Shown here piece by piece: positions 24,318 through 24,620 of a DNA stretch of 64,000 bases. This DNA is from Octopus vulgaris. Lineage: Eukaryota. The stretch lies in contig OX597840.1 of the NCBI GenBank assembly GCA_951406725.2, positions 27,962,001 to 28,026,000 of the forward strand, read 5' to 3'. Within the stretch, counting starts at the first letter, position 1; the number at the start of each line of letters is the position of its first letter. Under the pieces are notes generated by a model that was given only the letters and a program-made list of their open reading frames with translations, had not been told where the DNA came from and ran no database searches. A program made the translations under genes and the position numbers.

Positions 24318-24620
24318 AGGCTGGACAGGCACCTCAATCAGCAGATCTCACTATCCTGGTCTGATGACGGGTTAAGACCCAGAAACATGTCCTCAGGTGT
24401 GAATCTTAGCTGGTAGGGGTGCTTGCCTCCCCTTCACAAATATAACGACACAGAAAATGTGTCAAAGCCGACAGGAAGCGTTCGATGCTTCCTAGGGCTA
24501 AACAGCGGTGGTGTGATTCCCATACGGGACTGTCAGATTAAGTTGACATTATACAGCCACTCTATCGCTCCACCACCGCTCATGTCTCTTTGAGACATTT
24601 AGAAATTTAATATTTCTGAT
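24318..24620 (+). ncRNA. Highly structured hammerhead-containing unit (retrozyme-like or PLE terminal repeat)
   Basis: CTGATGA 24361-24367, gggt/accc stem II, GAAA 24382-24385, acatgt palindromic stem III, GTC site; long stem I (24323-24359 with 24393-24427); five further stems; flanked by (TA)n. Confidence 0.65.

Follow-up and report, generated by a model that had tools for sequence, protein, structure and literature searches.

An abundant hammerhead repeat family of the octopus genome, a new non-LTR retrozyme by its sequence features and probably copied by PLE-type enzymes

Introduction

The non-LTR retrozymes of animals, as described by Cervera and de la Pena 2020 (PMC7229834) and also in PMC7761336, are non-coding repeats of 150-450 bp that carry a type I hammerhead, have a GC content below 50%, and form highly self-paired monomers. 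Those of mussels measure 350-390 bp. In the axolotl motifs of the same study, either helix III is palindromic or the base of helix II carries a mismatch, and cleavage is better in the dimeric form (PMC7229834). Its authors proposed from co-occurrence that PLEs mobilise these repeats, in a main text where the word 'tail' is absent, and the dependence on PLEs is also put forward in a review (PMC11722881). The recent study of vertebrate retrozymes by Li, Clavereau, and Pollet 2026 (bioRxiv 10.64898/2026.07.22.740005) makes the same proposal for monomers that are dispersed across chromosomes. In the text compared, it argues from co-occurrence and pLTR homology, includes no mollusc and no insertion ends ('tail' has 0 occurrences), and reports that one of nine predicted dimers was cleaved in vitro. 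The PLE dependence of retrozymes has been proposed before, but none of the texts compared bases it on insertion ends; their supplements may bear on this point.

The PLEs themselves leave a recognisable trace. According to Frangieh 2024 (PMC11167929), their tail lies between two internal start sites of the reverse transcriptase (RT), with initiation in an AC-rich stem-loop, and this tail signature is called unique to PLEs. Craig 2021 (PMC8557442) describes a layout of inversion plus tail, together with a bias towards (TA)n targets. A further precedent is newt satellite 2 (Coats 1994, cited in PMC2220036), whose hammerhead repeat contains a Pol II promoter of the snRNA type.

Here we analyse a hammerhead unit in a window of 64,000 nt of Octopus vulgaris (GCA_951406725.2, contig OX597840.1, positions 27,962,001 to 28,026,000) and the repeat family to which it belongs. 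By every sequence-level feature, this family is a new member of the animal non-LTR retrozymes. It shares with the metazoan elements of PMC7229834 the type I hammerhead, size, GC content, and self-pairing; it differs in consisting mostly of dispersed partial copies with no long arrays, and is known here from genomic sequence. Its insertions resemble those of the endonuclease-bearing PLEs (PMC8557442, PMC11167929): they lie in (TA)n or AT-rich DNA, include partial tandems and inverted arms with 5' truncations, carry the tail at a single end, point to two internal starts of the RT, and do not end at the hammerhead cut site. Unlike these PLEs, the unit has no ORF, its tail is about 55 nt instead of 30-40 (46 in a young PLE of the same genome), and its hammerhead has an extended stem I, not the minimal PLE form. 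In contrast to the pLTR-based argument made for vertebrates, we found no pLTR homology for the octopus unit among the PLE termini compared. Like newt satellite 2 (PMC2220036), it may have an snRNA-type promoter in a hammerhead repeat, here predicted from its likeness to the DNA upstream of U1/U2 in this genome. At the level of titles and abstracts, we found no octopus or cephalopod hammerhead or retrozyme family of this kind; Repbase, subscription journals, and supplements may hold one.

The class itself is known and the window copy is probably inert. The interest of the family lies in the question of which enzyme spreads animal retrozymes: its insertion ends carry the PLE tail signature, with a PLE of the same genome as control. 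These ends point to exact RT start sites, so that TPRT could be assayed in vitro with a defined circle as template, and the resulting model singles out the few copies able to act as sources.

The window unit and its fold

The unit and its immediate surroundings comprise the following features (window coordinates).

24291..24317, no strand: (TA)n target, left
24318..24620, plus strand: 5'-truncated copy of a ~354-nt hammerhead repeat, subfamily A, monomer positions 49-355
24318..24360, plus strand: 5' arm of stem I, which is long and interrupted; transcription is predicted to start at ~24330-24336, judging by the LINE target site and the spacing of U1/U2 promoters
24361..24391, plus strand: type I hammerhead core, with CUGAUGA, a 3-bp stem II above C.A, GAAA, and a palindromic helix III
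24392..24444, plus strand: 3' arm of stem I, whose outermost segment (24431-24444) pairs with a part lost from the window copy
24447..24500, plus strand: two conserved hairpins, 24447-24463 and 24466-24500, the latter enclosing 24473-24493; 95-98% of cells paired
24504..24580, plus strand: 10-bp stem around two small hairpins and an AC-rich loop with the fixed end E1 (~24560-24566)
24565..24620, plus strand: ~55-nt 'tail' from E1 to E2 (E2 at ~24617-24620), plus the upstream half of the next unit's U1-like promoter
24619..24789, no strand: (TA)n target, right
24790..25342, minus strand: remains of a separate PLE family, outside the element: a broken GIY-YIG C-terminus with the first part of the 3' UTR

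A preliminary description had placed a hammerhead core, an interrupted stem I, a series of hairpins, and a 10-bp stem in this region, and all of them are found there. The core, CTGATGA..GAAACATGTC, occupies 24361-24391 with a predicted cut at 24391/24392; the perfect 10-bp stem joins 24504-24513 to 24571-24580, and a further hairpin lies at 24582-24598. The (TA)n runs reported on both flanks are present (24291-24317 and 24619-24789), and so is the absence of an ORF, the longest ATG-started frame being 29 aa. The unit (303 nt) is strongly structured, with a minimum free energy (MFE) of -115.9 kcal/mol and a z of -6.04 (0 of 100 shuffles equally stable), but to call it almost fully base-paired overstated the fold, in which 63% of the bases are paired. 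Its supposed GC-richness stands against the window mean (47% versus 36%) and fails against the LINE piece directly to the left, also at 47%. The length of about 300 nt given for the unit needs revision: tandem copies set the period of the monomer at ~354 nt, and the window copy lacks the first 48 nt (the linker), which makes it a 0.86-unit arm ending at E2. When real monomers were folded as circles, four of family 1 gave z of -5.2 to -9.9 and one of family 2 gave -3.4, with 63-67% of the bases paired, in the shape of a single long rod capped by the hammerhead plus a ring of hairpins.

A dispersed family with distant relatives

Thousands of family segments are spread across the genome. The similarity search with the unit returned at least 86 matches (40 scored of 2,950 candidates), the exact 26-nt core has 50 genome matches, and two exact 16-mers have 1,044 and 2,736 (controls 3 and 1). 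A family-type core pattern, which includes related families, has 1,441 matches, with 0 for its control. The monomers have 41-47% GC and the subfamilies are 71-95% alike; being non-coding, between 150 and 450 nt long, and below 50% GC, they fall within the size and composition of non-LTR retrozymes. Head-to-tail tandems occur, with two cores in L005, which is 92% identical to the window copy, and three in the trimer L234, the longest array seen; most copies are dispersed and partial, and the window copy has one core. The unit had been suspected of being a retrozyme-like monomer, and this reading has been borne out: it is multicopy, occurs in tandem, has covarying stems, and contains no ORF. The family is not recovered by Rfam models: at the gathering cut-off, Rfam gave zero matches over the window, and its hammerhead models gave none on L005 at E up to 5, only TA-driven noise.

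A covariance model (R1) built from 33 copies also matches more distant families, in which the hairpins follow one another in the same order, including all 11 family-2 loci (E 2e-9 to 1e-27) and a young 359-nt array of identical units with a CCGAUGA core (L245:1790-3515, E 5e-20). The two hairpins of 24447..24500 are also found in families 2 and 3. In these two families (L142-L167, 11 loci; L205-L224), which share the hairpin order and have a period of ~358 in L163, helix III is mostly 2 bp with a tetraloop. Family 2 appears, as read by eye, to have two fixed ends too.

Ribozyme core and covariation

The core columns are identical in 30-33 of the 33 aligned copies, and the core-adjacent positions are more variable. 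The two mismatches previously reported next to the core are both present, C.A at the foot of stem II and U.C at that of stem I. The stem I pair is A-U in 18 copies, G-C in 11, A.C in two, and U.C in two (the window copy and L002). At position 10.1-11.1, the base of stem II, we counted C.A in 19 copies, A-U in six, U-A in four, and others in four. C.A is non-canonical for a hammerhead at this position; being the commonest state (19/33 copies), it is the normal one of the family. Helix III is self-complementary or nearly so, with 6-11 nt depending on the subfamily. Most subfamily-A copies have a 10-nt palindrome, and the window copy has one of 6 nt that results from a 4-nt deletion and is identical in L234. 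We infer a step of dimeric cleavage, as in the axolotl motifs, which a palindromic helix III fits.

The stems covary, in particular stems I and II, around a core that is nearly invariant across subfamilies. The specified structure has 91.9% of its cells paired, against 26-45% in slid controls, a fraction favoured by the fact that it was specified by hand from copy L003, because the RNAalifold consensus mispaired the core and the 3' hairpins. Two-sided changes affect 18 of the 56 pairs and amount to 111 cells, compared with 41.9 in shuffles; these counts refer to sequences and not to events, so relatedness inflates them, and fold-back conversion at the DNA level is an alternative source of such changes. 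In helix 2 of stem I, upstream of the predicted transcription start, five of the seven pairs covary.

These observations bear on the template used in copying, which may be a circle or an uncut multimer. If it were a linear, uncut multimer, copied by the same PLE enzyme, the hammerhead would be slow or dispensable and no circles would take part. Frangieh 2024 (PMC11167929) gives this some weight, as hammerhead mutants did not impair insertion in the experiments described and unprocessed RNA was the main substrate. The trimer (L234) would be a possible source of such RNA, and U.C, common to two dispersed copies, may have been propagated. However, the core stays nearly invariant across subfamilies that are only 71-79% alike, and stem I covaries upstream of the predicted start, as expected if the cut ends are held together, although a multimer forms the same stem. 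We regard the linear template as unlikely, and favour a circular one.

Insertion ends and the PLE tail

We placed the outer 3' ends of the insertions in monomer coordinates, with two end windows about 55 nt apart, E1 at 288-306 and E2 at 344-355. The data set has 101 sites, obtained by merging overlaps among 128 loci that were chosen by similarity or motifs, which biases the ends. Its 145 outer 3' ends fall at E2 (64), at E1 (63), elsewhere (17), or near the cut (one). When loci were picked by the core sequence alone, 20 of 21 contained a copy that has the core and stops at E1 or E2. Seamless tandem junctions occur at 34 of the 101 sites, 66 run across the cut site, and the 5' ends are scattered. 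The insertions comprise partial tandems and inversions, in (TA)n or AT-rich targets (flanks judged by eye, without a background count).

The two ends come in pairs. The 44 back-to-back sites with two ends include 30 of E1 with E2, two of E1 with E1, two of E2 with E2, and ten with an irregular end. Hence, 30 of the 34 sites with both ends at E1 or E2 are mixed (p 3e-6), a count that retains the two E2 with E2 sites although these are splitting artefacts of the 120-nt gap rule (L168 and L169 continue to E1). E1 falls in the AC-rich loop closed by the 10-bp stem.

As a control, we used an intact PLE of the same genome, with an ORF of 775 aa, a GIY-YIG domain (E 3e-6), and a period of 4,271. At least 150 scored copies, among 19,022 first-look candidates, are nearly all identical over the query. 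The PLE ends at two sites 46 nt apart, and one of each is present in all six inverted insertions in which both ends are visible (L181 is ambiguous). From the two fixed ends with their one-of-each pairing, the PLE control, and an AC-rich E1 loop like the initiation site of Frangieh 2024, we infer with good support that PLE-type enzymes copy the family. This young PLE (L201-L204; G000:C1:27841000-27850900) also has a hammerhead-like motif with the core CCGAAGA, as read by eye.

The neighbouring PLE and the search for a partner

The PLE piece at 24790-25342, on the minus strand, has a broken GIY-YIG end that in a sister copy reaches a Pfam E of 0.012, below the cut-off. The preliminary description had considered that the unit could be the structured terminal repeat of this PLE. 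The two lie tail to tail across (TA)n, a layout that recurs in L063 with a distant relative. With blastn, the unit is found in 0 of the 19 other copies of that PLE, and the covariance model places a distant relative near two of the 19. The PLE moreover has its own, different hammerhead and its own end, ~650-750 nt past the break in the window copy. Unless full-length copies of that PLE terminate in the unit, the blastn result and this second hammerhead refute the terminal-repeat reading, which we regard as extremely improbable. The simplest reading is that the unit and the PLE are neighbours through common (TA)n targeting, which explains their adjacency. The relative in L063:2926-3202, of the 359-nt type, adjoins a PLE end tail to tail across (TA)n, like the layout of the window.

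Alternatively, an autonomous PLE that has so far escaped notice could have the unit as its pseudo-LTR, in which case the dispersed copies would be its truncated stumps. Such stumps have the same layout of inversion plus tail, and in Xenopus 24 of 57 retrozyme families are homologous to known elements, nearly all of them PLEs, at their termini (Li, Clavereau, and Pollet 2026, bioRxiv 10.64898/2026.07.22.740005, in the text compared). A tblastn search covering ~195 of the thousands of family loci also found PLE fragments in 15 of the 195. However, none of these 15 loci has a PLE ORF that leads straight into the unit (six were judged by coordinates only), and the sequence upstream of position 1 is always a previous unit (34 sites). 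The pseudo-LTR thus appears quite improbable, and copying in trans by a PLE-type enzyme remains the reading that we prefer. In the search for a partner PLE, R1 matched no terminus of two PLE families, and blastn of the unit against the young PLE gave chance matches only (9-18 nt). At one locus, L098:962-1321, the 5' end of a unit faces a weak PLE-RT remnant (E 6e-4) in head-to-head orientation, perhaps by chance or as a chimeric insertion with two arms.

A predicted promoter across the unit junction

A 7-nt motif found at -57 to -60 in five U1/U2 promoter examples is also present 83-89 nt ahead of the core in all six units, in the linker that is missing from the window copy. The transcription start implied by this spacing is predicted 25-31 nt before the core, and in these six units motif and distance fit a PSE-like element some 58 nt upstream of the start. 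The DNA upstream of U1 aligns across the junction of subfamily-A units with a score reached by 0 of 200 shuffles (D, 1/200), for subfamily B and families 2 and 3 the alignment is not significant (17-38/200), and the U2 types are mixed (3-186/200), in a set of 30 comparisons of AT-rich DNA. A U1-like promoter is predicted to span the unit junction.

The region just ahead of the hammerhead is also the target of a LINE, which inserted at monomer positions 65-82 at four sites and left a short tail at two more.

L094/L095, L087/L088, L039/L040, L226: LINE insertions just ahead of the hammerhead

A similar LINE tail precedes two of the 15 U2 loci (L251, L258) in place of the promoter. The ORF of this LINE gave nothing useful in Pfam.

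Sequencing-run contigs

The family is present in contigs from sequencing runs of four organisms, which give no strand, level, or circles; none of the runs containing it is recorded as RNA. Run X1, whose RNA status is guessed, has an uneven profile like that of DNA-like runs and unlike the even cover of a circle. Joints that go back 346-352, as genomic tandems would produce, are present in X1 and X17. Among the contigs listed, none bridges the left junction of the window copy. Reads across 24391/24392 had been suggested as a mark of circular RNA; such reads would be expected from linear RNA as well as from circles, since the genomic sequence is restored when the cut ends are ligated.

A model for the spread of the family

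Taken together, these data make it quite probable that the window unit is a 5'-truncated copy of an abundant non-LTR retrozyme, likely copied in trans by a PLE into (TA)n and probably from circular RNA. In this model, a tandem source copy would be transcribed from the U1-snRNA-type promoter straddling the unit junction, with +1 some 25-31 nt before the core. Successive hammerheads would cut the transcript, likely in dimeric form and joined by the palindromic helix III, and release RNA of unit length whose ends are held by stem I. A host ligase would then close it. The PLE protein would nick AT-rich DNA, and the RT would start at two internal sites, E1 in the AC-rich loop and E2 55 nt further on. 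By continuing across the cut site and past the junction, it would produce tandems, 5' ends of variable position, and E1/E2 arms placed back to back. The window copy was described as possibly inactive because of its core-adjacent mismatches. Inactivity is probable, but the chief reasons are others, C.A being normal in the family: without the promoter core and a second ribozyme, the copy is likely a dead end that probably yields no circle.

A broader reading, for which we see about as much reason to believe as to doubt, is that an RNA circle driven by a host promoter parasitises the PLE machinery, with both DNA strands primed from two fixed internal sites on one circle and rolling through the ribozyme junction. 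Several related families of different age would share the design, and the LINE would use the same start site. With a U1-type promoter placed across the junction, an insertion would have to roll beyond that point to regain a promoter, and, if this reading is true, only those reaching a second ribozyme would become new sources.

Other elements of the window

The segment at 23984-24290 (plus strand) is presumably the broken 3' piece of a LINE reverse transcriptase, for which Pfam gave no hit; it runs up to the (TA)n into which the unit was inserted. Further upstream, two inverted copies of 272 bp, 91% alike, lie at 23601-23935; one arm is ~55-60 nt longer, and the pair is folded at a broken hammerhead-like motif. 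It looks like the terminal stump of a PLE with its tail. An abundant SINE-like repeat with internal (TA)n occupies 23180-23600 and has at least eight near-full copies elsewhere in the window. Minimal PLE-type hammerhead motifs lie on the minus strand at about 37368, 39598, and 44503, and the type at 37368 also ends a PLE in L244.
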